Below, piece by piece: positions 20,278 to 31,040 of a stretch of DNA of 32,000 nucleotides. The position numbers and the translations under genes were made by a program. The notes beneath the pieces are model-generated. The model was not told the DNA's origin and did not search any database. It saw only the letters and a list, made by a program, of their open reading frames with translations. How positions within the stretch are numbered: the first letter of the stretch is position 1; each line of letters begins with the position of its first letter. This DNA is from Candidatus Electrothrix sp. GW3-4 (GTDB lineage: Bacteria > Desulfobacterota > Desulfobulbia > Desulfobulbales > Desulfobulbaceae), in contig NZ_CP147990.1 of NCBI RefSeq assembly GCF_037902255.1, forward strand, positions 30,001 through 62,000. Reading direction: 5' to 3'.

Positions 20278-23200
20278 ATGTTCAAGGCAGACATGAAGGA
20301 GAAGCATAGAGGCATGAAGCAGAAGAGAGAGAAGGGTGCTGTGGCGGGGATGCTTCCCCAGGGAGTCTATGCTATTAAAAAAGATATATTTTGCTATATC
20401 CTGGCTGGAATGACCTTGCTGGGGTTGGTCTATCTCTTCTCGATTTTTTGGATGTATCGACAGCAGGATGCAGCCCGTTATCAGGAATGGAAACAAACCG
20501 TTGATGATATTTATTCCAACCGCCTCAGCGAAGCAGAGAAAAATCTGAAAGCACTTCTCTTCGTACTGCGTGAAAATCCTGTTCTTCAGCAGCAGTTTAT
20601 GGCCAGGGATCGGGAAAAACTTCTGGAGACGAGTCGTTATCTGGAGCAGAGCCTGCATCAGGACTATCATATTACCCATTTCTATTTTCATACACCGGAC
20701 AGGGTTAATTTTCTTCGGGTCCATCAACCCAAACGTCATGGAGATAAGATTGATCGTTTAACAATACGGCAGGCAGAGGAGACCGGTGACGTTGCTTCAG
20801 GGGTGGAAATCGGTCCATTGGGAACCTTGACATTGCGAGCAGTTATGCCTTGGTATGCCGGAAAACAGTTGGTCGGTTATCTGGAATTGGGCAGGGAATT
20901 GGCTTCAATTGTCTCGGCCTTCCGGCAGTCCGAGACCGTTGACGGTTATTTGCTGACGGTGAATAAACAATTTGTTGAACGGCAGGGCTGGGCCCTTGGC
21001 ATGGCCATGTTGGACCGGCCAGCTAACTGGTCTGCGTTTTCAGATAGAGTGGTCATGATAAACACCCTGCCTGAGCGGTTTGCCTATCTTGGGAGTGAAC
21101 AGGTGGAACAGCATCGGATTCAGACCTTTCTGCACCGCTTTATTTTTCCGAAAAATATGTTCTACATGATCCATGATCGACCGCTGATCGATGTTTCCGG
21201 CAGACAGTTGGGCAGCCTGATTTTTGTTCATGATGAACTCAAAGAGCTTTTGCTCGCCCGGCGGATGAATAATTTTTTTCTTCTTACCCTGCTGGGCTTA
21301 GCGGCCTTACTCCTGATTATTTATTACCATGTGTTACGCAGAACAGAACTCCAGTTGGCAGAATCCGGTGCTGTTCTGGAAGAGAGCCGTCAACAGTTGG
21401 CCCTTGCTCTGGAAGTGGCGGACCTGGGAATGTGGGATTGGCGACCGCAGCATGGTGATGTTGTCTATACGAATGATATCTTTTTTACCATGCTGGGGTA
21501 CTCCTCTGAGAAGTTATCCTTTACCATGGAACGATGGATTGAATTGATCCATCCTGATGATCTTGGCGGGACCTTGACTGTGCGTCAGCTCTTTCTCGAT
21601 AGCGATGATAGCTGTTATTGTACCGAATATAGGGTGCGTACGGTTAGTGGGCAATGGAAATGGATTAGGGATGTGGGGCGTGTGGTCAGCCGTGATCGTC
21701 TGGGACAGGCGGAGCGTTTTATGGGGGTCCATATCGATATCACCCAGAGAAAAGAGGCTGAGGCCCAGATGCAGGGAAATTATGAGCGTCTGATCACCTT
21801 TATGGAGACCTTGCCTGATGCAGCTTTTCTCAAGGACGGAGATGGCCGTTGGCAGCTGACCAATCAAACGGCAAGAGATCTTTTTGGCATGAAAGAATTT
21901 CCCTGGCAGGGACGAACGGATGTTGAGCTTGCCGAATTACGGCCTGATTGGGAACAGGCCCATCTTGCCTGTATTGTGAGTGACCAGAGGGCCTGGCAGG
22001 CCAAGGAGATGTTTTTTGACTATGAGAAAGTCCGGGGAGAAGATGAACAGGAGCGGATTTTTGAGGTCAGAAGGATGCCGTTATTTTTTCCAGATGGACA
22101 GCGTAAGGCGCTGGTTATCATTGGGCGTGATATTACCACGGAGAGGTTGGCAGAGAAAGAGCTGAAAAAGAGTGAACAATTCCTGGCTCAGACTCAGCAA
22201 ATTGCCGGGCTCGGCAGTTGGCGGCAGATTTTTTTGGATAATGAGCAGGAATGGTCGCCAGAGATGTATCGTATCCTTGAGCTTGATCCCGCAAGCACCG
22301 AGTCTTCATTGACCTCGTTTCTTGACCTCGTGCACCCCGATGACCGGCAGCAGGTCAGTGATGCCTATACGCAGTCCGTGCTCAGCAGGAGCTCTTTTTG
22401 TGTTGAACACAGGTTGTTGATGGAGGATGGGCGGATAAAATATGTGCTTGAACGGGGCGAGACGGAGTACGATGAGAACGGTAGTCCTGTGCAGTCCATC
22501 GGTTCGGTGCTTGATATTACTGCGCGGAAGAAGATAGAGCAGGAGCTTATTGAAGCACAGCAGCATGCTGAGGCCGCCAGTCAGGCGAAGTCAAAATTTC
22601 TTGCCAATATGAGCCATGAGCTTCGCACCCCGATGAACGCCATTATCGGGATGTCGAAGCTTGCCCTTGAGACAGAGCTGACAGAAGAGCAGAGGAACTA
22701 TATTGAGAAGGCCCATCTCTCTGCGGAGTTGCTGCTCGGTATCCTTAACGATATTTTGGACTTTTCCAAGATTGAAGCCGGAAAGATGAGCTTGGAAATT
22801 ATTCATTATCAGCTCCATGCTGTATTTGAAAATCTGCACAATCTCATCGGCTTGAAGGCCGCTGAAAAGGGCCTGCTCTTGCATATTGATATTGCCGATA
22901 ATGTTCCTGATGCCCTCCAGGGAGATCCCCTGCGCCTTGGCCAGATTCTGGTTAATCTGGTCAATAATGCGATTAAGTTTACGGATAAGGGGAGTGTCGC
23001 TGTCTGCGTTGAACTGATGGAGCGGGAAGAAAGTCAGGTGGTTCTCCATTTCAGTGTCACAGATACCGGCATCGGTATGAGCTCGGAGCAGCAGAAAAGG
23101 CTGTTTCAGCTTTTTAGTCAGGCAGATAGTTCAATTACCCGGAAGTATGGTGGGACTGGCTTGGGTCTTTCCATTTGCAAACGTTTGGTCAAAATGATGG

Positions 23201-24120
23201 GAGGAAAGATCTGGGCCGAGAGTGCGCAAGGTCAAGGATCTTGTTTTCATTTTATTTTGCCCCAAAAGATTGGTAATCCCCGTGCTCATCATGAGGAGTC
23301 AGCCAATATTGCAGAGGATATCAGCCGACTGCACGGGGCCAGGATTCTGCTGGTAGAAGATAATCAGATCAATCAGGAGCTTGCCGAACTTATGCTGACC
23401 CGCCAAGGTATGGAGGTGACCCTTGCCAGCAACGGTGAAGAGGCCCTAGCCGTCCTTGCTCAGCAAGAGTTTGATGGTGTGCTCATGGATATTCAGATGC
23501 CGGTGATGGACGGTTATACGGCCTGTGTAGAGATAAGAAAGGATCCCAGTTATAAAGAGCTTCCAATTATCGCCTTGACAGCAAATGTCATGGCCGGAGA
23601 TCAAGAGAAAAGCAGAAAGGCGGGGATGAATGGGCATATCGGTAAACCCTTTCGAGAAGAGGAGATGTTTGCCACTATGCTGCGTTTGATCCGACCAGCA
23701 GATTCGTTGTCCGTAAGGGAGCAGATAGAGAAAGAGCCAGAGGAGAAAACAGTCAGGAAGGAGCCTGTGAGCCTTTTTGGTCTTGCAGGTATTGAGGCTG
23801 GCAAGGGCATGAAGAACACCATGAACGATCCAGAGATTTATCGCCAGGTCTTGCAGCTCTTTCGTAAGGATCAGGGGGAGTTCTCTCAGAAGTTTCAGGC
23901 GGCGCAGGCAGGAGAGGAGCCAGATGTGCCGATCCGCTTAGCCCATACCCTGAAGGGGATCGCCGGAACCATCGGGGCAACTCAGCTGCAGGAGGAAGCC
24001 TTGCTGTTGGAGATGCTGTGTCGGGAGGATGGGGCGGGGGAGGAGAAAGAAGAGCAGTTCCGCAGGGTCAGCAGGGAATTGGATACGGTGTTTGCGGAAC
24101 TGGATCGTTTTTTTGGGTGA
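20278..24120 (+). CDS. Hybrid sensor histidine kinase/response regulator with Hpt domain
   Basis: TM helix, then a roughly 270-aa extracytoplasmic Cache-like region, then a second TM helix. Three PAS-like modules follow. The H-box is [11 protein letters not shown] (His780), with HATPase N/G boxes ([24 protein letters not shown]). REC domain is [12 protein letters not shown]...[12 protein letters not shown] (Asp1071). Hpt motif is [12 protein letters not shown] (His1223). The exact start is uncertain. Confidence 0.9.
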
Positions 24121-24175: not shown

Positions 24176-26008
24176 CTACAGCATCCGCACCGCCCCTTTG
24201 TCGGCTGAGGCCGCGAAACGGGCATAGACCTGTAGGGATTTGGGAACCTCCCGTTCTCGATTCGGGGTAAAGGCAGCTTCTCCGCGCGCTTCTTCCTCCT
24301 GACGACGCTGGGCAAGCTCTTCTGCACTGATCTGGAGAGAAATGGTCCGTTCCGGTATATTAATATCAATGGGGTCTCCATCCCGAACCAGGCCAATGGC
24401 GCCGCCGTCTGCTGCTTCCGGGGAAACATGACCGATGGACAGGCCAGCTGTACCGCCGGAAAAACGTCCGTCCGTGACCAGAGCGCATTCTGCACCCAGG
24501 TGCATGGATTTCAGGTAGGAGGTAGGGTAGAGCATTTCCTGCATACCCGGCCCACCTTTGGGACCCTCATAGAGGATAAAGACCACATCGCCTGCCGTGA
24601 TTGCCCCGGCCAGAATACCTTCACAGGCCGCCTCCTGCGAATGAAAGACCTTGGCCTTGCCCTGAAAATGGAGGATGGACGGGTCCACACCTGCGGTTTT
24701 CACGATGCAGCCGTTCTCGGCAATGTTGCCGTACAGCACGGCCAGTCCGCCGTCTTTGGAGTAGGCATGATCCGCACCCCGGATGCAGCCCTTTTCTCGA
24801 TCTGTATCCAGTGCTTCGTACATGGTGTTCTGTGAGCCCATCACCAGGTTGCGTCCCGTATTGCCTGGCGCACTGGCGTAGAGGCTGCGGGCCGTCTCTG
24901 TGGCGGTCTCTCGTGCAATATCAAGCTGATCCAGGGCCTGGGCCAAGGTCAGGCCGTCGGCCCGGCTCACAGCCGTGTCCAGGAGTCCGGCCCGGTCCAA
25001 CTCACCGAGAATTCCCAGGATACCGCCTGCCCGATTCACGTCCTCCACATGATATGGGGAAGAGGGGGCCACCTTGCAGAGGTTGGGTACCTTGCGGGAA
25101 AGGGCGTCGATGTCCTGCATGGTGAAATCCACTCCGGCCTCATGAGCGACCGCCAGGATATGGAGCACGGTGTTGGTGGATCCACCCATAGCGATATCCA
25201 GGGCCATTGCGTTGTTGAAGGCCGCCTTGGTGGCGATGGAGCGGGGCAGGACAGAGGCGTCTTCCTTGTCGTACCAGGCCTCGCACATGGCCACGATGCG
25301 GGCGGCTGCCTGCTCGAACAGGGAGCGGCGGTTTATATGGGTCGCTACTATGGTGCCGTTGCCGGGCAGGGACAGGCCCAGGGCCTCGGTAAGGCAGTTC
25401 ATGGAGTTGGCTGTGAACATGCCGGAACAGGAACCGCAGGTGGGACAGGCTGCCCGCTCCACCTCAGCGATTTCCTCATCCGAGACCGCCTGGTCGCCTG
25501 CCATGACCATTGCATCGATCAGGTCGTAGCCACGTTCCTGTCCTTTGACCCGCCCCGCCTCCATAGGCCCGCCGGAAACAAAGATGGCCGGGATATTCAG
25601 GCGCATGGCGGCCATGAGCATACCCGGTGTGATCTTGTCGCAGTTGCTGATGCAGATCATGGCATCCACCTTGTGGGCGTTGCACATGTACTCCACAGAG
25701 TCAGCGATCAGCTCGCGGGAGGGCAGGGAGTAGAGCATACCGTCGTGGCCCATGGCAATGCCGTCGTCAATGGCGATGGTGTTAAACTCAGCAGCAAAGC
25801 AGCCCTGTGCTTCGATCTGTCGCTTCACCTGCTGGCCGATCTCGTGCAGATGCACATGCCCCGGCACCATCTGGGTGAAGGAGTTGACCACCGCGATAAT
25901 AGGTTTGCCGATCTGTTCTTCGGTCATGCCGTTGGCCCGCCACAGGGCGCGCGCTCCGGCCATTCTTCTGCCTTGGGTTGTTTCATTGCTGCGAAGGGGG
26001 ATTGCCAT
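24176..26008 (-). CDS. ilvD: Dihydroxy-acid dehydratase
   Basis: The N-terminus [28 protein letters not shown] is the canonical IlvD start. Further matches: [12 protein letters not shown], the Fe-S ligand region [15 protein letters not shown], and the C-terminal [14 protein letters not shown]. GGAG RBS before ATG 26008. The longer ORF reaching 26086 is not supported. Confidence 0.95.
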
Positions 26009-26091
26009 GATTGTTCTCCTGTTATTTACAATAGCATTCTTTGCATTATTTTTCGGGTACAGGCAGTGCCTTCTCTCGGCGGTCAAAGGTG

Positions 26092-26120: not shown

Positions 26121-26161
26121 AAGAACAAGCATAGTAATACGATCTTATGAGGAAAGAAAGT

Positions 26162-26419
26162 ATGTCCGGGATAAAAACAGCGATTTCCTTGGATGAACAT
26201 CTGTTCAATGAAGTCAAAGAGACGGCTCGTGACCTGAATACGTCCAGAAGCGGTGTGATCAGGCAGGCATTGCTTGAATTTATGGAAAGACGGAAGAATC
26301 AACGTCTGCTTGAGCAACTGAATGAAGCATATAAGGACGGGCCGACAGGGGAAGAAGAGAATATTGCCCGATCAATGCGGAATGCGCAGCAGGGGATAAC
26401 AGAGCAGGAGCCGTGGTGA
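26162..26419 (+). CDS. Ribbon-helix-helix (CopG/MazE-like) antitoxin
   Basis: MSGIKTAISLDEHLFNEVKETARDLNTSRSGVIRQALLEFM is an RHH beta-strand/helix/helix pattern. The RBS AGGAAAGAAAG lies before ATG 26162. The gene overlaps the toxin start. Confidence 0.8.
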   Translation: MSGIKTAISLDEHLFNEVKETARDLNTSRSGVIRQALLEFMERRKNQRLLEQLNEAYKDGPTGEEENIARSMRNAQQGITEQEPW

Positions 26420-26769
26420 TTCGGCAGGGGGAAATCTACTGGCTTGATGTTGGCAAGCCGAGAGGTTCTGAGCCGGGCTATCGGCATCCGTATCTCGTTG
26501 TTCAGAATAATCTCTTCAATGCGAGTCTGATCAACACGGTTGTTGTCTGTTCGTTAACGTCCAATCTTCGCCGGGCCGCAGCTCCGGGTAATGTTCTGCT
26601 TCGTAAAGGGGAGGCGAATTTGCCGAAAAAGAGCGTGGTCAATGTTTCGCAGATATTCACGGTGAATAAATCTGACCTGACAGAAAAGATCGGGCAGATT
26701 TCCAAGCAGCGGTTCCTGGAGATACTGGAAGGGATCAGGTTGCTTACGGAGCCGAGAGAACTCTCCTGA
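26413..26769 (+). CDS. mazF: MazF/PemK-family endoribonuclease toxin
   Basis: RQGEIYWLDVGKPRGSEPGYRHPYLVVQNNLFN...VVVCSLTSN...VVNVSQIFTVNKSDL is the typical PemK/MazF SH3-like fold signature. GTG start overlapping the antitoxin stop. Confidence 0.85.
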   Translation: MVIRQGEIYWLDVGKPRGSEPGYRHPYLVVQNNLFNASLINTVVVCSLTSNLRRAAAPGNVLLRKGEANLPKKSVVNVSQIFTVNKSDLTEKIGQISKQRFLEILEGIRLLTEPRELS

Positions 26770-26879: not shown

Positions 26880-27275
26880 CTAAGTTAAAGCGTCTAACAT
26901 CAAGAGTGCTGTTCCAACAAGTAAAGATAATGCACATGTAATTGCCGAACTAGGAGATACTTGAGACGCATTCGAGAAGAAAGAGACAAGAATTGGTAAT
27001 CCTATCCCCAAGAATCCCCCTCCAACTGGTCCATATAGTTTCTTCTTCCAGTTTCTTCGCTCAATCGAACGAAGCCTTTTCTTTGCTTCTTCTACATGGA
27101 TACAGCTTATCTGCTGTACACCATCCCGTGCTGCAACCCGTGCAGCTTCCAAGACTAATTCTGCTCCATACTCAGTAGAGAAGTCTTCTATCTTTGTCTT
27201 TGCTTCTGGAGAATGAGGTTCACCTTCTGTATCAAGCATTTTTTTTACAACATTATAGGGTGCAGTATTACTCAT
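26880..27275 (-). CDS. 131-aa membrane protein: N-terminal histone-fold-like domain + two C-terminal TM helices; translationally coupled to the ROCO gene
   Basis: ATG 27275 is preceded by AAGGGGGA. It overlaps the ROCO stop codon by 8 nt (ATGAGTAA). TM segments are LYGPVGGGFLGIGLPILVSFF and AITCALSLLVGTALLMLDAL. The fold call for the N-terminal ~70 aa is explained in the findings. Confidence 0.7.
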   Translation of the reverse strand: MSNTAPYNVVKKMLDTEGEPHSPEAKTKIEDFSTEYGAELVLEAARVAARDGVQQISCIHVEEAKKRLRSIERRNWKKKLYGPVGGGFLGIGLPILVSFFSNASQVSPSSAITCALSLLVGTALLMLDALT

Positions 27276-29781
27276 GCTTATCCCCCTTTTGTGGATCATC
27301 AAGAACTCTAGCTCGGACTTTAGATTTTATTCCTTCAAAGAGACTATTAAGATTGATACCGACACCAAAAGCATTCGGCTTTAACTCAAGATTTATGTTG
27401 CTTGCCTCCGTTGCCGCCTCCTTGTGCTCAAGCTCCGCCTGAAGTTTCTGCATCGTTCTTAGTATCTCATCTTCCTTGCTTGGTTCTACTAAGCCCAGCA
27501 GTTCCTTCACGCTGTACCGCTTCTTTGAGCCATCTGGAATGAAAATGTCCGCACCAGCCTCAGCAAAATTGATTAAAGTTTCATAGTCGGCACTGCGCTG
27601 CGGGTCGTCAGGCATTGGAATGCGTTCGCTAACCTCAAGCTTTTCGAAGCTATTGTTTATTTCTCTTAGTGTGAACCAGAGGAAGCTGAGATACTCCTTG
27701 CGGCGCGGACCATGCACCCAGAGGTAGATACGCCGGGCCTCATGATCCGCCTTGACCACGGCATTGGTGCCGCTTGCCTTGTCCTCAAGTACAACCCCTG
27801 TACGCCAGCATAGACCCGATTTGATATTTTGATGCACCTTGACCATGAAGCGGGAAAAGACCGAGGGCGGCAGGAAGTCCTGATACTGAAGAATGAAGCC
27901 CAATGAGCCGCTATAGTCAAAGGTAAATTCCGGTTCATCAATAGGAAAGAACTGGGGGAGGAGAACGGCCTCCTCACCGACACCCCAGCATAGCTGAAAC
28001 TTCTTCATCAGCTCCAGAATAAATACATGTGTATGTATCGGCCAAGAGTGCTTTTCCTCTTCTTCATGCTGCAGAATTTTCTTAAGGCTTTCCAATTGCA
28101 GAAGACCGTTGCTGTCCGCCATCTCCTTAGCCGTGATGATTTTATATACCGCTTGCGTTATCCAGACCGGATCAAGTACATGCATGGCATTTAGAATGTA
28201 GTCATCGAAATGTATGGCTGCACCTAGGTCATGAAGAAAGCTAAGTAGAGTTTTCTGATTTTTTTCCTCGGAGATGCCTGCTTTTTTACAGATAGTTTCA
28301 TACTCCTCACAGCTAATGTAGGGCTTGCCCATTTGTCCGATACGCTGCTTGACCGCAAACCAGCTTTTCGGCCAAGGAGTATCCAGAAGCGGCATTTGTC
28401 GCAGCTCTTTGAGTAGTGCAACCCGGAACTCCTCAATACCTACATTGTTTTTGCATGAGGTGGGATAGAAGCCAGTTATGGTCGGATACTTACGTTGCAG
28501 ATGCACACAGTTGAGCCCAAACCCGCAACTCTCATCCTGCTTGTTGAGTACGACCAGCACGGGCGAGTCCCCGCCAAAGCTCTCAATATGCTGAAGCCAG
28601 TATTCGGGTCGCTCCTCCTTACGCCCATCAAGCACTAAGATATACAGGCTGCGTTTGGAAAGGAAGAATTGGTGGGTGGTGTGCTGGATAACTTGGCCAC
28701 CAAAGTCCCAAATGTTGATTCTGATCTTTCTGTCGCCGATATCCTGTTGCCAGCCATTAATATTGATACCATGCGTAGTGTCCTCGTGATGGTCAAAGGA
28801 CAAGCCGAGTAGCCGCTTGACTAAGGAAGTCTTGCCTGCCGCACCGTCGCCGACGACGAGAACTTTTACCTCGCTGAGGGACTGATCTTTTGACGGGAGG
28901 AGAACAGGATCAGAAACCACTCCTATTGAGGTGTTGGGTTTAAAGGCAGCGAAATACTGACAGATGGCATCAATGCCCCGAGTGGCTATTTCATACGGCG
29001 GAGAGGTGAGGGGATTGCGACCGAAGTAAAGTTCCTTCAGGTTCTTGAGCTTACAGATTTCTCGCGGCAGGCTGCTGAGATGGTTGTTGCTGAGGTTAAG
29101 CACCATCAGCTTTGTTAGCTGGCAGATTTCTGGTGGCAGAGTGGTGAGTTCATTATCCAGGAGGAAAAGTTTTTTCAGACTCGTAAGCTTGCAAATTTCC
29201 AATGGCAGTACATTGAGCCGATTGTTGCTGAGGTTAAGCTCTGTCAAATTCGTGAGCTGTCCGATTTTCGGCGGCAGGTTGCTGAACTGGTTATGGCGGA
29301 GGTCAAGTACCGTCAGCGTCGTGAGCTGGTAGATTTCCGGCGGTAAACTTCTGAGATGGTTGTGGCCAAGATTAAGTCCCGTCAGCTGCTTGAGCTGACC
29401 GATTTCCGATGGAGGGTTGTCGATATAGTTGCTGTAGAGGTCAAGCTCCTTTAGTTTTGTAAGCTTGAGAATTCCTGACGGCAGATTTCTGAGTTGGTTG
29501 TTACGGAGGTCAAGAACCGTCAGATTCGTGAGCTGGCTAATTTCCGGCGGCAGAGTGGTGAGTTTATTATTCCAGAGCCTGAGTTTTTGTAGATTCGTGA
29601 GTTTGCGGATTTCCGGCGGCAGGCTACTGAACTGGTTATTGCAGAGGTCAAGCTCCGTCAGATTCGTGAGCTGACCTATTTCCGACGGTAATTCTTTCAA
29701 CCCTTGTCCGCTCAAGCGAAGCGTTGTTGTCCCGCTTGCCTTGGCCTCTTCTATCTTCTGCAACACTCTTTCATTCGTCAT
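27268..29781 (-). CDS. ROCO-family GTPase: 11 x 23-aa leucine-rich repeats + Roc (Ras-of-complex) GTPase + COR domain + short C-terminal tail
   Basis: LRR units follow LTNLTELDLxNNxLxxLPPEIxQ (aa ~15-270). Roc motifs: G1 GDGAAGKT (aa 311-318, nt 28828-28851), G3 WDFGGQ (aa 358-363), G4 NKQD (aa 413-416), and TSCK. A long COR-like region reaches ~aa 780 (…IPMPDDPQRSADYETLINFAEAGADIFIP…). Confidence 0.9.
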   Translation of the reverse strand: MTNERVLQKIEEAKASGTTTLRLSGQGLKELPSEIGQLTNLTELDLCNNQFSSLPPEIRKLTNLQKLRLWNNKLTTLPPEISQLTNLTVLDLRNNQLRNLPSGILKLTKLKELDLYSNYIDNPPSEIGQLKQLTGLNLGHNHLRSLPPEIYQLTTLTVLDLRHNQFSNLPPKIGQLTNLTELNLSNNRLNVLPLEICKLTSLKKLFLLDNELTTLPPEICQLTKLMVLNLSNNHLSSLPREICKLKNLKELYFGRNPLTSPPYEIATRGIDAICQYFAAFKPNTSIGVVSDPVLLPSKDQSLSEVKVLVVGDGAAGKTSLVKRLLGLSFDHHEDTTHGININGWQQDIGDRKIRINIWDFGGQVIQHTTHQFFLSKRSLYILVLDGRKEERPEYWLQHIESFGGDSPVLVVLNKQDESCGFGLNCVHLQRKYPTITGFYPTSCKNNVGIEEFRVALLKELRQMPLLDTPWPKSWFAVKQRIGQMGKPYISCEEYETICKKAGISEEKNQKTLLSFLHDLGAAIHFDDYILNAMHVLDPVWITQAVYKIITAKEMADSNGLLQLESLKKILQHEEEEKHSWPIHTHVFILELMKKFQLCWGVGEEAVLLPQFFPIDEPEFTFDYSGSLGFILQYQDFLPPSVFSRFMVKVHQNIKSGLCWRTGVVLEDKASGTNAVVKADHEARRIYLWVHGPRRKEYLSFLWFTLREINNSFEKLEVSERIPMPDDPQRSADYETLINFAEAGADIFIPDGSKKRYSVKELLGLVEPSKEDEILRTMQKLQAELEHKEAATEASNINLELKPNAFGVGINLNSLFEGIKSKVRARVLDDPQKGDKHE

Positions 29782-29873: not shown

Positions 29874-30140
29874 GGGGATTGCCCTTCGCCCCTTGGGAAT
29901 CATCATGCGTCACAGGGGGATTACCCTTCGCCCCTTGGTAATCATCGTCCGTCACAAGGGGATTGCCTTACGCCCCTTGGGGATCATCTTTCGTCACAAG
30001 GGGATTGCCTTCCACCCCTTGGGAATCATCATACGTCACAAGGGGATTGCCTTGCGCCTCTTGGTAATCATCGTTCGTCACAAGGGGATTATCTTCCTTC
30101 CCTTGGGGATCATCATGCGTCACAAGGGGATTGCTCTTCA
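29874..30140. repeat. Tandem array of 6 full + 1 partial 42-bp units, each with an internal 7-bp inverted repeat
   Basis: Unit starts at 29874, 29916, 29958, 30000, 30042, 30084 and 30126. Consensus GGGGATTGCCTTNCGCCCCTTGGRAATCATCNTNCGTCACAA. The hairpin is CAAGGGG-N11-CCCCTTG. A degenerate copy (GGGGCTATTCCCC) lies at about 29850. Confidence 0.9.
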
Positions 30141-30198: not shown

Positions 30199-30921
30199 TC
30201 AACGATTTGCAAACCAGATCGCATAATCTTTTACTGGCTGATAGTTGTCTGAGGATTTATCCAGGACTTCTAAATCACATAAGGGAAACTCATACTTCTC
30301 GCGTCCATGCCGTAACGACACCAGTATTCCATAGATATCCTCAATATCATCATCAAAAACATCATATTCTTCATCATCATCTTCATAAATACCCACTACC
30401 GTTACCTGATCTCCTTCTTGTAACGGCCCCTCCTCTTGACACTCAAAGATCTCTGCCTCAAAGGGAAATTCCAACTCATCCTCAAGATACTCCTGCCATA
30501 CCTCAAAGGCCGCCTCTTCACTCTCATCTTCAGCGTTGTCTAAGACGGCCTGTATTCTCCTGTCTATTTCCTCTGATTCTTCAGGATCTTCATCTGTCCA
30601 AGTAAAATCATGCTTGCTTTCAATATCTTCAATTGCTTTTACGACATCGTCCACACTATCTCTGGCCGTTGTCTGTTCAACATCTTCTGGTGCAAGATAC
30701 ACTCTGGCCCAGTCCAACCCTTCTACTTCACAGTAGACAATCGTCTTATCAGATAGCTGCTTGAGACTCAGGCTATCCCAATCTATGCCAATCAAACCGT
30801 CTTCTTCCTCAATTTCAGCGACCCGTCCCTGCCATCCGCCGATGTTGATATTTAAATCAAGTTCTTCAACATTCGGTTTTACAATGACAGAATCACCGAG
30901 CTGGAGTTTGCCTTGTGCCAT
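30199..30921 (-). CDS. Hyperacidic protein with CcbP-like (calcium-binding) C-terminal half
   Basis: GAGGA RBS before ATG 30921 (MAQGKLQLGD...). The stretch AAFEVWQEYLEDELEFPFEAE...YGILVSLRHGREKYEFPLCDLEVLDKSSDNYQPVKDYAIWFANR resembles my recollection of cyanobacterial CcbP (WYYYLDDTLEFPF...DWLYW). Long D/E runs are present. Confidence 0.7.
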   Translation of the reverse strand: MAQGKLQLGDSVIVKPNVEELDLNINIGGWQGRVAEIEEEDGLIGIDWDSLSLKQLSDKTIVYCEVEGLDWARVYLAPEDVEQTTARDSVDDVVKAIEDIESKHDFTWTDEDPEESEEIDRRIQAVLDNAEDESEEAAFEVWQEYLEDELEFPFEAEIFECQEEGPLQEGDQVTVVGIYEDDDEEYDVFDDDIEDIYGILVSLRHGREKYEFPLCDLEVLDKSSDNYQPVKDYAIWFANR

Positions 30922-31040
30922 AATAATCCTCAATAAATACTATTTCCAAGCTGATACAATCTTCGATTGATGTTACCTCCCTACCCGGCTGTTCCTTCAG
31001 GACAAGGAATACATCCCAGAGGCACGGGGTGCCAAACATA

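Follow-up and report, generated by a model that had tools for sequence, protein, structure and literature searches.

Structural and biochemical work on the Parkinson's disease kinase LRRK2 uses bacterial Roco proteins as its standard model, and the Roco protein of Chlorobium tepidum serves as the biochemical model of the bacterial group; to our knowledge, neither the biology of these bacterial proteins nor their binding partners are known. For bacterial LRR-AP-GTPase(Roc)-COR proteins, a role as counter-invader systems has been predicted, the C-terminal effector domain being variable (at least 24 were reported) and several paralogues occurring in filamentous bacteria (Kaur, Burroughs, Iyer and Aravind, 2021, eLife 10:e70394, PMC8195603). 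Schwab et al. (2024, Nat Commun 15:7950, PMC11390915) divided prokaryotic histones into 17 categories, one of which comprises the transmembrane (TM) histones; they took A0A1F9E2M1 as the model protein of this category, published its AF2 dimer, obtained low ipTM values (0.39-0.46) for TM-histone dimer predictions and judged DNA binding by these proteins unlikely. A membrane-related, non-chromatin role of a histone fold is known from SOS, the lipid-binding histone domain of which regulates Ras signalling (PMC11390915).

In the window (the whole stretch of 32,000 nt analysed here), a ROCO gene of 837 aa (27268-29781, minus strand) is followed on the same strand by the gene of a 131-aa transmembrane-histone protein, TMH (26880-27275, stop codon included), as determined from the open reading frame and its translation, the homologues and hhalign. 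The ROCO protein consists of LRRs (aa 1-290), a Roc GTPase domain (about aa 300-460), COR-A (aa 471-611), COR-B (aa 626-762) and a tail of 75 aa, and the Pfam E-values were 5e-37 for COR-A, 1e-34 for LRR_8, 4e-29 for Roc and 8e-29 for COR-B. The Roc domain directly precedes COR-A and COR-B, and the G1, G3 and G4 motifs are intact and readable in the translation (GDGAAGKT, DFGGQ and NKQD), which places the protein in the ROCO family. No C-terminal effector domain was detected by Pfam in the 837 residues. The C-terminal tail was also compared with the conserved C-terminal helix of a two-helix membrane protein of ~100 aa that accompanies TMH in other clades, and the two were not similar enough for a relationship to be inferred.

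The 131-aa reading frame of TMH lies where the original prediction had placed it, according to the list of open reading frames and the translation. Its start codon is the ATG at 27275 and its stop codon is at 26880-26882; a longer reading from a TTG at 27302 is possible, but the homologues begin at the ATG instead. The ROCO stop codon (27268-27270) runs 8 nt into the TMH start (ATGAGTAA, 27268-27275, minus strand, by direct reading), and a Shine-Dalgarno-like GGGGGA (27281-27286, minus strand) is still part of the ROCO gene, near its end, and lies 5 nt upstream of the TMH ATG. Such a stop/start overlap implies that translation of the two genes is coupled. The ROCO gene ends on the TMH start with the identical 8-nt overlap in loci L001, L002, L003, L009 (Ca. 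Electrothrix marina) and L010, and a 4-nt ATGA overlap joins the two genes in L011 and L012. At the junctions of seven loci, a purine-rich run (GGAGA, GGGGA or GAGGA) was found at the same place before the TMH start; overlap and internal Shine-Dalgarno-like run are thus kept in seven loci from two clades that are 39% identical.

Within the Electrothrix clade, a ROCO gene stands upstream in all members for which upstream sequence was recovered, and the pairing is kept among cable-bacterial relatives down to 55% (ROCO) and 57% (TMH) identity. The P0019 clade (39% identical) has an LRR-Roc-COR-A-COR-B gene upstream in L011-L013, and one contig from sample ERZ23486241 carries an in-frame LRR-TMH fusion without Roc-COR. 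A ROCO paralogue without TMH behind it is also present in L001. The sample of TMH genomic contexts is small (about 15 independent loci). A related-locus scan of genomes with TMH found only two loci, two metagenome scans for related TMH loci found none, and a protein search with the intermediate TMH clades returned four proteins. We consider a real functional partnership between ROCO and TMH likely.

The TMH family has at least 321 representatives. The close homologues (n = 16, 56-90% identity) align essentially gap-free with TMH, and the Electrothrix clade is 23-31% identical to the main family of 139-aa proteins. One family member, A0A450S484 (P0192), is listed as 'Transmembrane histone' in the source data of Schwab et al. 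(PMC11390915), and the family that includes it was matched by the Electrothrix clade in hhalign (probability 98.8%, E = 4e-17) along the fold as well as the membrane hairpin; two family members carry the JGI name 'histone H3/H4'. Based on this homology and on the membrane domain C-terminal to its histone fold, TMH is a TM histone. The comparison with published catalogues that had been proposed thus returned a homologue under that very name, and since A0A450S484 was already listed, the architecture is known. What had been called an unusual architecture is therefore not new as a histone fold joined to a membrane domain, but its coupling to ROCO appears undescribed: literature searches on ROCO with a histone fold or membrane histone, and on bacterial histones with anti-phage functions, turned up no earlier account of this pairing. 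The value accordingly lies in the ROCO association and not in the fold; the conserved coupling to ROCO and other immune-type switch proteins appears to be the new element and suggests a function for both partners.

The original prediction had aligned aa 3-68 of the small protein, without gaps, to a sequence of HMfB. That sequence proved identical to residues 2-67 of PDB 1a7w, and the 14 identities were reproduced, together with 27 positives and a BLOSUM62 score of 39. The register was the best among all possible ungapped offsets, and its score was reached by none of 5000 fixed-register and none of 1000 best-offset shuffles (z about 5.4). Pairwise BLASTP of TMH against HMfB was not significant (E = 0.18) and aligned another local segment, so that significance comes from profiles only. 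Single-sequence searches with TMH (Pfam, NCBIfam, PADLOC and PDB) yielded nothing significant, the best match being a LonB lid (E = 0.019), and a profile of the 17-member clade matched HMfA (E = 0.14) and HMfB (E = 0.54) weakly, in the register of the original prediction. With a profile of 145 family members, PDB matches were obtained to H2B (1.1e-6), HMfA (4.7e-5), HMfB (5.8e-5) and HPhA (9e-5), as well as to NF-YB, NC2-beta and H3; all significant matches (E = 1e-6 to 1e-4) were histones, aligned in the register of the original prediction as well, and the best 60 matches were all histone-fold proteins. Similarity to bona fide histones is thus significant with the family profile, but not with the single protein or the 17-member clade. 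In per-member Pfam searches, CBFD_NFYB_HMF was found in 33 and Histone in 16 of the 145 members, and the 25 commonest families included no SLATT-type or other known membrane effector family. Among the positions that had been stressed as helix-defining, S22, A25, E43, A44, A48, I/V56, V61, A64 and L68 are conserved in the family, but the glycine in the middle of alpha2 (10% G) and G52 (22%) are not.

The predicted structure agrees with the profile. The cytoplasmic histone-fold domain (aa 1-70; 27066-27275, minus strand) was delimited by AF2, Foldseek and the family profile, and its elements in the AF2 model are alpha1 (7-15), L1 (16-22), alpha2 (23-50), L2 (51-57) and alpha3 (from 58). The monomer model built from an alignment of 52 sequences (A3) had an overall pLDDT of 80.8, with 83-93 over aa 21-70 and about 90 in alpha2, and it shows the histone-fold topology around one long central helix, a continuous alpha2 of 28 residues, followed by helices 58-101 and 108-130. 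The best 50 Foldseek matches in the PDB were all histone folds, with a TM-score of 0.71 for HMfB and an rmsd of 3.7 Å over 62 columns for H2B; the E-values were weak (0.09-0.4), as expected for a helical domain of 60 residues. The histone-fold reading put forward earlier is thus borne out by the family profile, the 52-sequence model, Foldseek and the published catalogue, and TMH very probably belongs to the transmembrane-histone family and has a histone fold.

Both the basic linker and the two TM helices that had been claimed behind the fold were recovered by charge count, hydropathy and the AF2 model. The basic juxtamembrane segment KRLRSIERRNWKKKL (aa 66-80; 27036-27080, minus strand) has a net charge of +7, is nearly invariant within the Electrothrix clade and is modelled as the helical continuation of alpha3 in an unbroken helix 58-101. 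Membrane helix 1 (aa 81-101; 26973-27035, minus strand) was assigned from a hydropathy peak and the AF2 helix and carries a glycine zipper, G82-x3-G86-x3-G90; glycine is found family-wide in 70% at position 82, 94% at 85, 94% at 86 and 99% at 90. Membrane helix 2 (aa 108-130; 26886-26954, minus strand), likewise with a hydropathy peak near residue 121 and an AF2 helix, contains G121, which is conserved in at least 90% of the family members. As modelled, TMH is an N-terminal cytoplasmic histone fold whose alpha3 leads through the basic segment into a two-helix membrane hairpin.

The mapping of the loop-2 RKT of HMfB onto VQQ, from which a dimerisation rather than a DNA-binding role had been suspected, was correct. 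All DNA-contact residues of HMfB are replaced in TMH (R19 by P20, R52-K53-T54 by V-Q-Q, and D59 by H60), the family consensus in L2 is A-D-T, with Asp at the K53 position, and the net charge of the fold is -3 versus +3 for HMfB. TMH thus lacks R19, R52-K53-T54, the D59 clamp and the basic surface of DNA-binding (nucleosomal) histones. From its sequence, we infer that TMH would be a non-DNA-binding, membrane-embedded partner of ROCO.

Outside the ROCO-linked clades, the TMH gene is flanked by genes for a MalT-like TPR protein and for a TIR protein, or it follows the gene of the two-helix membrane protein mentioned above; some TMH genes adjoin integrase or AbiJ-type genes, and the divergent member P0124 stands alone beside ordinary genes. 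TIR is the obvious effector in the TPR-TMH-TIR loci, and TMH may therefore be an adaptor there and not an effector. The dN/dS values for the pair formed by the window and L009 were 0.56 for TMH and 0.215 for ROCO, and ilvD gave 0.065 for the pair formed by the window and L001; by this measure, TMH is fast-evolving. PADLOC returned no matches beyond noise for TMH or the ROCO protein of the window, and, apart from a MazEF-like pair, no obvious defence island was found in the window. When the main-family member P0192 was searched by tblastn against phage and plasmid collections, no match was obtained, so there is no sign that the family is phage- or plasmid-borne.

The architecture of the ROCO protein fits the AP-GTPase systems, and TMH is a separate gene at the effector position. 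The histone folds of TMH would form a handshake homodimer, as their fold suggests, against the inner face of the membrane, and this dimer would be the membrane-embedded partner through which the ROCO switch gives its output, at the position that fused effectors occupy in related bacterial ROCO proteins. A signal sensed by the LRRs would change the nucleotide and dimer state of ROCO, and this change would be passed on to TMH, the glycine-zipper hairpins of which could then pack into higher oligomers, perturb the membrane and give an abortive-infection-type output. This membrane-effector mechanism, taken by itself, is tentative, and we rate its chances as somewhat short of even. Fold, partnership and mechanism blended together, a conflict-type ROCO switch with TMH as its output is the best overall explanation, and we give it a probability of roughly 0.55.

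As to the nature of the N-terminal domain, a compact helix-strand-helix bundle that stays monomeric and resembles the C-terminal lid of AAA+ ATPases, and not a handshake dimer, would be suggested by a shallow AF2 model from 17 sequences, in which alpha2 is interrupted at residues 32-36, a 21/56 bridge is formed and the domain superposes on RuvBL1 lids (2.5 Å over 63 columns). RuvBL1 was also the top PDB match of the clade profile (E = 0.07), and the sub-threshold per-member matches to lid families (LonB_AAA-LID in 62 and Cdc6_lid in 31 of 145 members) outnumber those to histone families. Moreover, the AAA+ C-terminal-lid-type fold is the proposed precursor from which histones are thought to have derived by domain swapping (PMC1847821), and with such a link residue contacts cannot separate the two folds. 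The shallow model, however, had a pLDDT of only 60 and was set aside as superseded by the 52-sequence model, in which the deeper alignment gave a continuous alpha2 and after which no lid was found among the best 50 Foldseek matches. The lid matches either are limited to the second half of the domain or require an insertion of four residues in the middle of alpha2, whereas the 30 columns of alpha2 (24-53) are free of gaps and of Pro in the 145 members; every significant profile match is a histone; and, contrary to an AAA+ lid with a P-loop core before it and an intramolecular strand pair in a compact four-helix bundle, the protein begins with the domain. We therefore regard a lid as improbable. 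That TMH is a true DNA-binding histone and acts as a membrane tether for the chromosome or for incoming DNA is less probable by far, although a histone fold with an adjacent segment of net charge +7 could in principle touch DNA: every canonical L1/L2 contact residue is replaced, with Asp at the K53 position in the family, the fold is acidic, the basic segment is where the positive-inside rule would put it, at the membrane interface, and the judgement of Schwab et al. (PMC11390915) points the same way.

As to the role of TMH beside ROCO, the adjacency might be meaningless, a self-contained small membrane protein having landed behind ROCO in one lineage, either as a partner of the two-helix membrane protein of other clades or as a housekeeping membrane factor. 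Most family members indeed have the ~100-aa two-helix protein and not ROCO encoded upstream, one member has no obvious partner and the ROCO paralogue of L001 has no TMH behind it. Against this, the overlap and the Shine-Dalgarno-like run are conserved across the seven loci of two clades that are 39% identical, an LRR-TMH fusion exists and TMH is tied in different clades to a large switch-type protein each time, be it ROCO or a TPR protein accompanied by TIR, and we consider a chance association unlikely. A partnership of another kind would see TMH as a passive membrane anchor or receptor, whose dimer and basic helix dock ROCO on the inner face of the membrane, raise its local concentration there and favour its dimeric state, with the real output elsewhere; comparable cases would be Rab29, which recruits LRRK2 to membranes, and the lipid-binding histone domain of SOS in Ras signalling. 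In favour of this, conservation within the clade is highest in the cytoplasmic juxtamembrane RLRSIERRNWKKKL, the membrane helices diverge quickly except at their glycines, and the TPR-TMH-TIR loci have a separate TIR effector. Roco proteins cycle between monomer and dimer, the membrane-bound form of LRRK2 being dimeric (PMC6337361), and with Rab-GTPase histones and SOS there are known cases of a histone fold associated with a small GTPase (PMC11390915). Nevertheless, the ROCO protein has no effector domain of its own, no other conserved neighbour suited as output was found across the loci, and the conserved glycine zipper exceeds the needs of a simple anchor; a purely anchoring role thus appears a possible but rather unlikely account, and the ROCO switch with TMH as membrane output is preferred.

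The coupled membrane partner offers a concrete handle on bacterial Roco biology. TM histones were catalogued in 2024 from predicted structures, without function or context, and the links to ROCO, TPR-type and TIR proteins point them towards conflict or signalling systems. It is conceivable, if doubtful, that TM histones serve bacterial NLR-like immune switches in general, as a module that executes the response at the membrane or acts as an adaptor and that is wired, depending on the clade, to ROCO, to a TPR/STAND-type protein with a TIR effector or to the two-helix membrane protein. In that case, the ROCO pairing would provide the first physiological partner and output of a bacterial Roco protein and the first function of TM histones, with a histone-fold dimer at the membrane that reads the monomer-dimer cycle of the Roc-COR GTPase. 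TMH also extends the short list of non-chromatin histone folds beside Ras-superfamily GTPases (SOS and the Lokiarchaeal Rab-histones).

Compared with HMfA and HMfB (PDB 1b67, 1a7w and 5t5k), TMH has the same helix-loop-helix-loop-helix order with elements of equal length, a gapless alignment over 66 residues, the S..A cap and EA..A of alpha2, I/V in L2 and V-E-x-A-x-x-x-L in alpha3, but it lacks the R-T pair, the RKT loop and the R-D clamp, its fold is acidic instead of basic, and its alpha3 extends into the membrane hairpin. With the AAA+ lids of RuvBL1, LonB and Cdc6 it shares a helix-strand-helix motif and weak sequence similarity; unlike them, it has no ATPase core, and its alpha2 runs without a break in the better model and shows no indels family-wide. 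SOS and the Rab-GTPase histones likewise place a histone fold beside a Ras-superfamily GTPase (PMC11390915), although they are single-polypeptide fusions without membrane-spanning helices, and no specific sequence relationship between them and the TMH family was detectable. The TM histones of Schwab et al. (PMC11390915) have the same N-terminal histone fold, C-terminal membrane domain and lack of conventional DNA-binding residues; alpha1, which is 'often missing' in them, is present in TMH, and whereas no function or genomic partner is named for them, the TMH gene is coupled to LRR-Roc-COR in two clades. The systems of Kaur et al. (PMC8195603) are similar in their LRR-Roc-COR-A-COR-B order with intact G motifs, in their occurrence with paralogues in a filamentous multicellular bacterium and in the variable module after COR. 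Whereas that module is a fused C-terminal effector in their proteins (TIR, caspase, trypsin, GT4 or EADs), and a membrane histone is not mentioned there, at this locus a separate, overlapping gene encodes a membrane histone-fold protein.

The gene for the transmembrane-histone protein (TMH) runs on the minus strand of the window from an ATG at 27275 to a stop at 26880-26882, and the translated ORF has 131 amino acid residues. The upstream gene on the same strand (ROCO, 27268-29781) encodes a protein of 837 residues, in which LRR, Roc, COR-A and COR-B domains were identified with Pfam (E-values 1e-29 to 1e-37). The ROCO stop and the TMH start share an 8-nt overlap (ATGAGTAA), and a Shine-Dalgarno-like run (GGGGGA) is present 5 nt 5' of the TMH ATG, within the end of the ROCO gene. 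Only a 75-residue tail follows COR-B, Pfam detected no C-terminal effector domain of the described kinds in this ROCO, and TMH is a separate, coupled gene in the position equivalent to such an effector.

Residues 3-68 of TMH had originally been aligned, without gaps, to a sequence of the archaeal histone HMfB. The HMfB sequence used was identical to that of PDB 1a7w, and the alignment (HMfB 2-67) was reproduced: 14 positions are identical, 27 are positives, and the BLOSUM62 score is 39. Its register was the best among all ungapped offsets, and the score was reached by none of 5000 fixed-register and none of 1000 best-offset shuffles (z about 5.4). The likeness is thus real, but pairwise BLASTP between the two proteins was not significant, so that profile evidence was needed. 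With the single TMH sequence, nothing above threshold was found in Pfam, NCBIfam, PADLOC or PDB searches. A profile of the Electrothrix-type clade, which has 16 close homologues (56-90% identity; named source organism, Candidatus Electrothrix), gave borderline PDB matches to the AAA+ lid of RuvBL1 (E = 0.07), HMfA (0.14) and HMfB (0.54), the histone matches being exactly in the register described. Pfam matches of the clade members were sub-threshold and divided between AAA+ lid and histone families.

An exhaustive HMM search placed the clade in a family of at least 321 representatives (E <= 1e-3), almost all of 110-170 residues and with a two-part layout in common. When the profile of 145 members was compared with the PDB, significant matches were obtained with H2B (1.1e-6), HMfA (4.7e-5), HMfB (5.8e-5) and HPhA (9e-5), followed by NF-YB, NC2-beta and H3; histone-fold proteins made up all of the best 60 matches, and the alignments with histones ran without gaps from the end of alpha1 to alpha3. 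The AF2 model built on a 52-sequence alignment had a pLDDT of 80.8 overall and 83-93 across the fold, with helices at residues 7-15, 23-50, 58-101 and 108-130 arranged as alpha1-L1-alpha2-L2-alpha3, where alpha3 is continuous with the first membrane helix. The top 50 Foldseek matches of this model in the PDB were all histone-fold proteins (HMfB, TM-score 0.71 normalised on the histone; H2B, rmsd 3.7 A over 62 columns), at weak E-values (0.09-0.4), which a helical domain of 60 residues would be expected to give.

A lid-like monomer was considered as an alternative for the N-terminal domain, given that the AF2 model from 17 clade sequences, although poor (pLDDT 60), was a compact lid-like bundle that superposed on the RuvBL1 lids. 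Cross-matches to AAA+ lids are, however, expected, because the histone fold is thought to have come from the AAA+ helix-strand-helix lid domain via domain swapping (PMC1847821). Across 145 sequences, the 30 alpha2-equivalent columns (positions 24-53) were free of gaps and of proline, a pattern more in keeping with one long helix than with a lid helix-turn-helix. The lid-like monomer therefore appears improbable; based on the family profile, the alpha2 columns, the 52-sequence model and Foldseek, the fold was settled as that of a histone, as originally predicted, and we assign this identity and fold a probability of about 0.85. A DNA-tethering histone is far less probable still. The RKT of HMfB, whose replacement had been noted, corresponds to V53-Q54-Q55 (R52-K53-T54 in HMfB), the other contact or clamp residues R19 and D59 are replaced by P20 and H60, and the L2 consensus of the family is A-D-T. 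The fold (aa 1-70) is also acidic, with a net charge of -3 vs +3 for HMfB.

The predicted basic linker and two membrane helices were likewise recovered. The juxtamembrane segment KRLRSIERRNWKKKL (aa 66-80) is near-invariant in the clade and has a net charge of +7, and in the 52-sequence model the membrane helices lie at the end of helix 58-101 and at 108-130. Helix 1 carries G82-x3-G86-x3-G90, with family conservation of 70%, 94% and 99% (G85, 94%), and helix 2 carries the conserved G121. According to the positive-inside rule, the basic segment places the fold in the cytoplasm, and an N-in/C-in topology is predicted from the short, neutral inter-helix loop and the short C-terminus.

The ROCO gene ended on the TMH start in every Electrothrix-type locus with upstream sequence recovered, namely the window, L001, L002/L003, L009 (Ca. 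Electrothrix marina) and L010 (a Desulfobulbaceae MAG), with identities to the window of 55%-80% for ROCO and 57%-70% for TMH. In a second clade, 39% identical (protein P0019; loci L011-L013), TMH immediately follows an LRR-Roc-COR-A-COR-B gene, which it overlaps by ATGA. The analysis thus shows that TMH combines a non-canonical histone fold with a membrane anchor and that, in two divergent clades, it is coupled translationally to ROCO. On a 1011-bp contig (L021:51-908, protein P0197), an LRR domain of the ROCO type, complete with its C-terminal cap, was fused in-frame to TMH without Roc-COR, and the fusion point bears a short duplicate of the alpha1 motif (NDVVKTVLL / YDVVKRML); this could be a genuine deletion variant or an assembly chimera and, coming from one contig of one sample, is weak evidence.

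TMH is evidently a coding gene, and its length is conserved. Its dN/dS between the window and L009 was 0.56 (fold 0.38, membrane part 0.75), vs 0.215 for ROCO in the same pair; that of ilvD, from a different pair (window and L001), was 0.065. At window 27066-27495, dS against L009 was 0.11 in the ROCO tail and 0.19 in the TMH fold region, much lower than the 0.25-0.85 of the rest of ROCO, possibly owing to recent recombination or to mRNA constraint around the coupled junction.

The flanking order of a hybrid sensor histidine kinase (20278-24120, plus strand, 1280 aa; PAS, HisKA, receiver and Hpt domains by L001 synteny), ilvD (dihydroxy-acid dehydratase, 24176-26086, minus) and a gene (30199-30933, minus) whose 244-aa product has a calcium-binding domain of the CcbP type is common to the window and L001. 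Between ilvD and TMH, the window carries overlapping plus-strand genes (26147-26769) for a 90-aa antitoxin of the ribbon-helix-helix kind and a 118-aa toxin of the PemK/MazF type; since ilvD directly follows TMH in L001, this pair is a lineage-specific insertion. In the intergenic region directly upstream of the ROCO start, before the CcbP-like gene, a 42-bp unit with the core GGGGATTGCCTTNCGCCCCTTGG is tandemly repeated (29874-30134; 6.2 copies, 84% matches); the array was found nowhere else in the window and in none of the 16 related loci searched. The window carries a single ROCO. L001 has a second paralogue (L001:1430-3916, 828 aa, 55% identical) with no TMH gene behind it and without the C-terminal ending SKVRxRVxDDPxxGDKxE conserved in TMH-coupled ROCOs.

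Other partners were found elsewhere in the family. In a more distant part of the family (P0025 and P0034), TMH stands between the gene of a large MalT-like TPR protein, upstream, and that of a TIR_2 protein, downstream (L015:1-2161, L016:3-2794; TPRs 32% identical to each other, their N-termini cut by contig ends), which looks like a three-gene defence-type module. In the main 139-aa clade, the TMH start is always overlapped by the gene of a roughly 100-aa two-helix membrane protein (L004:5691-6008, L006:5678-6004, L007:5699-5992, L008:2891-3181, L019:4667-4987) that matched no Pfam or PADLOC family and whose C-terminal helix, LK..I..AYL.AL..S.(L/F)NPER, is conserved in the first four copies. 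These loci often adjoin phage-type integrases or AbiJ-like genes. A roughly 230-aa uncharacterised protein is often encoded downstream. In Roseivirga, the gene upstream of TMH encodes a two-helix membrane protein of 140 aa whose C-terminal region is long, charged and, as read from the sequence, probably helical. The divergent member P0124 stands alone. PADLOC has no model for the family, and no member was found in phage or plasmid collections.

A true ROCO-TMH partnership is likely, and with the overlap recurring in two clades, a meaningless adjacency appears improbable. Roco proteins alternate between a monomeric, GTP-bound form and a dimer, and LRRK2, once Rab proteins have recruited it to membranes, is an active dimer there (PMC6337361). 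Tentatively, we propose that TMH histone folds pair as a handshake dimer beneath the membrane and that this dimer would act, embedded in the membrane, as the output partner of the ROCO switch: LRR sensing would change the ROCO state, the TMH hairpins would oligomerise through their glycine zippers, and the oligomers might damage the membrane. The main rival, in which TMH serves ROCO as a passive receptor or scaffold at the membrane, is only a little less probable; the fast evolution of TMH would suit a component of a conflict system, or else an anchor under loose constraint.

Two TMH family members are labelled 'histone H3/H4' by JGI. P0192 is UniProt A0A450S484, which the source data of Schwab et al. 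(2024), who defined 17 categories of prokaryotic histones, list as 'Transmembrane histone' (monomer pLDDT 86, dimer ipTM 0.43; PMC11390915). As hhalign matched the Electrothrix clade to the A0A450S484 sub-family across the fold and membrane hairpin (probability 98.8%, E = 4e-17, 112 columns), the window TMH is a divergent member of this category. The original observation and interpretation are supported, except that the membrane-tethered histone fold, then called unusual, was already known; its coupling to ROCO and the wider TPR/TIR module link appear undescribed and are testable, and literature searches returned no description of a ROCO-transmembrane-histone pair. Histone folds beside Ras-superfamily GTPases are known from SOS and Lokiarchaeal Rab-histones (PMC11390915). 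Bacterial LRR-AP-GTPase(Roc)-COR proteins, of which filamentous bacteria have multiple paralogues, were predicted to be counter-invader switches whose C-terminal effector domain comes in at least 24 alternatives, including TIR, caspase, trypsin, GT4 and EADs, and a histone fold is not mentioned alongside them (Kaur, Burroughs, Iyer and Aravind 2021; PMC8195603). Whereas those systems carry the effector as a C-terminal domain, the window ROCO is coupled to a separate TMH gene; and whereas the published category was given neither function nor genomic partner, the TMH of the window is coupled to ROCO.
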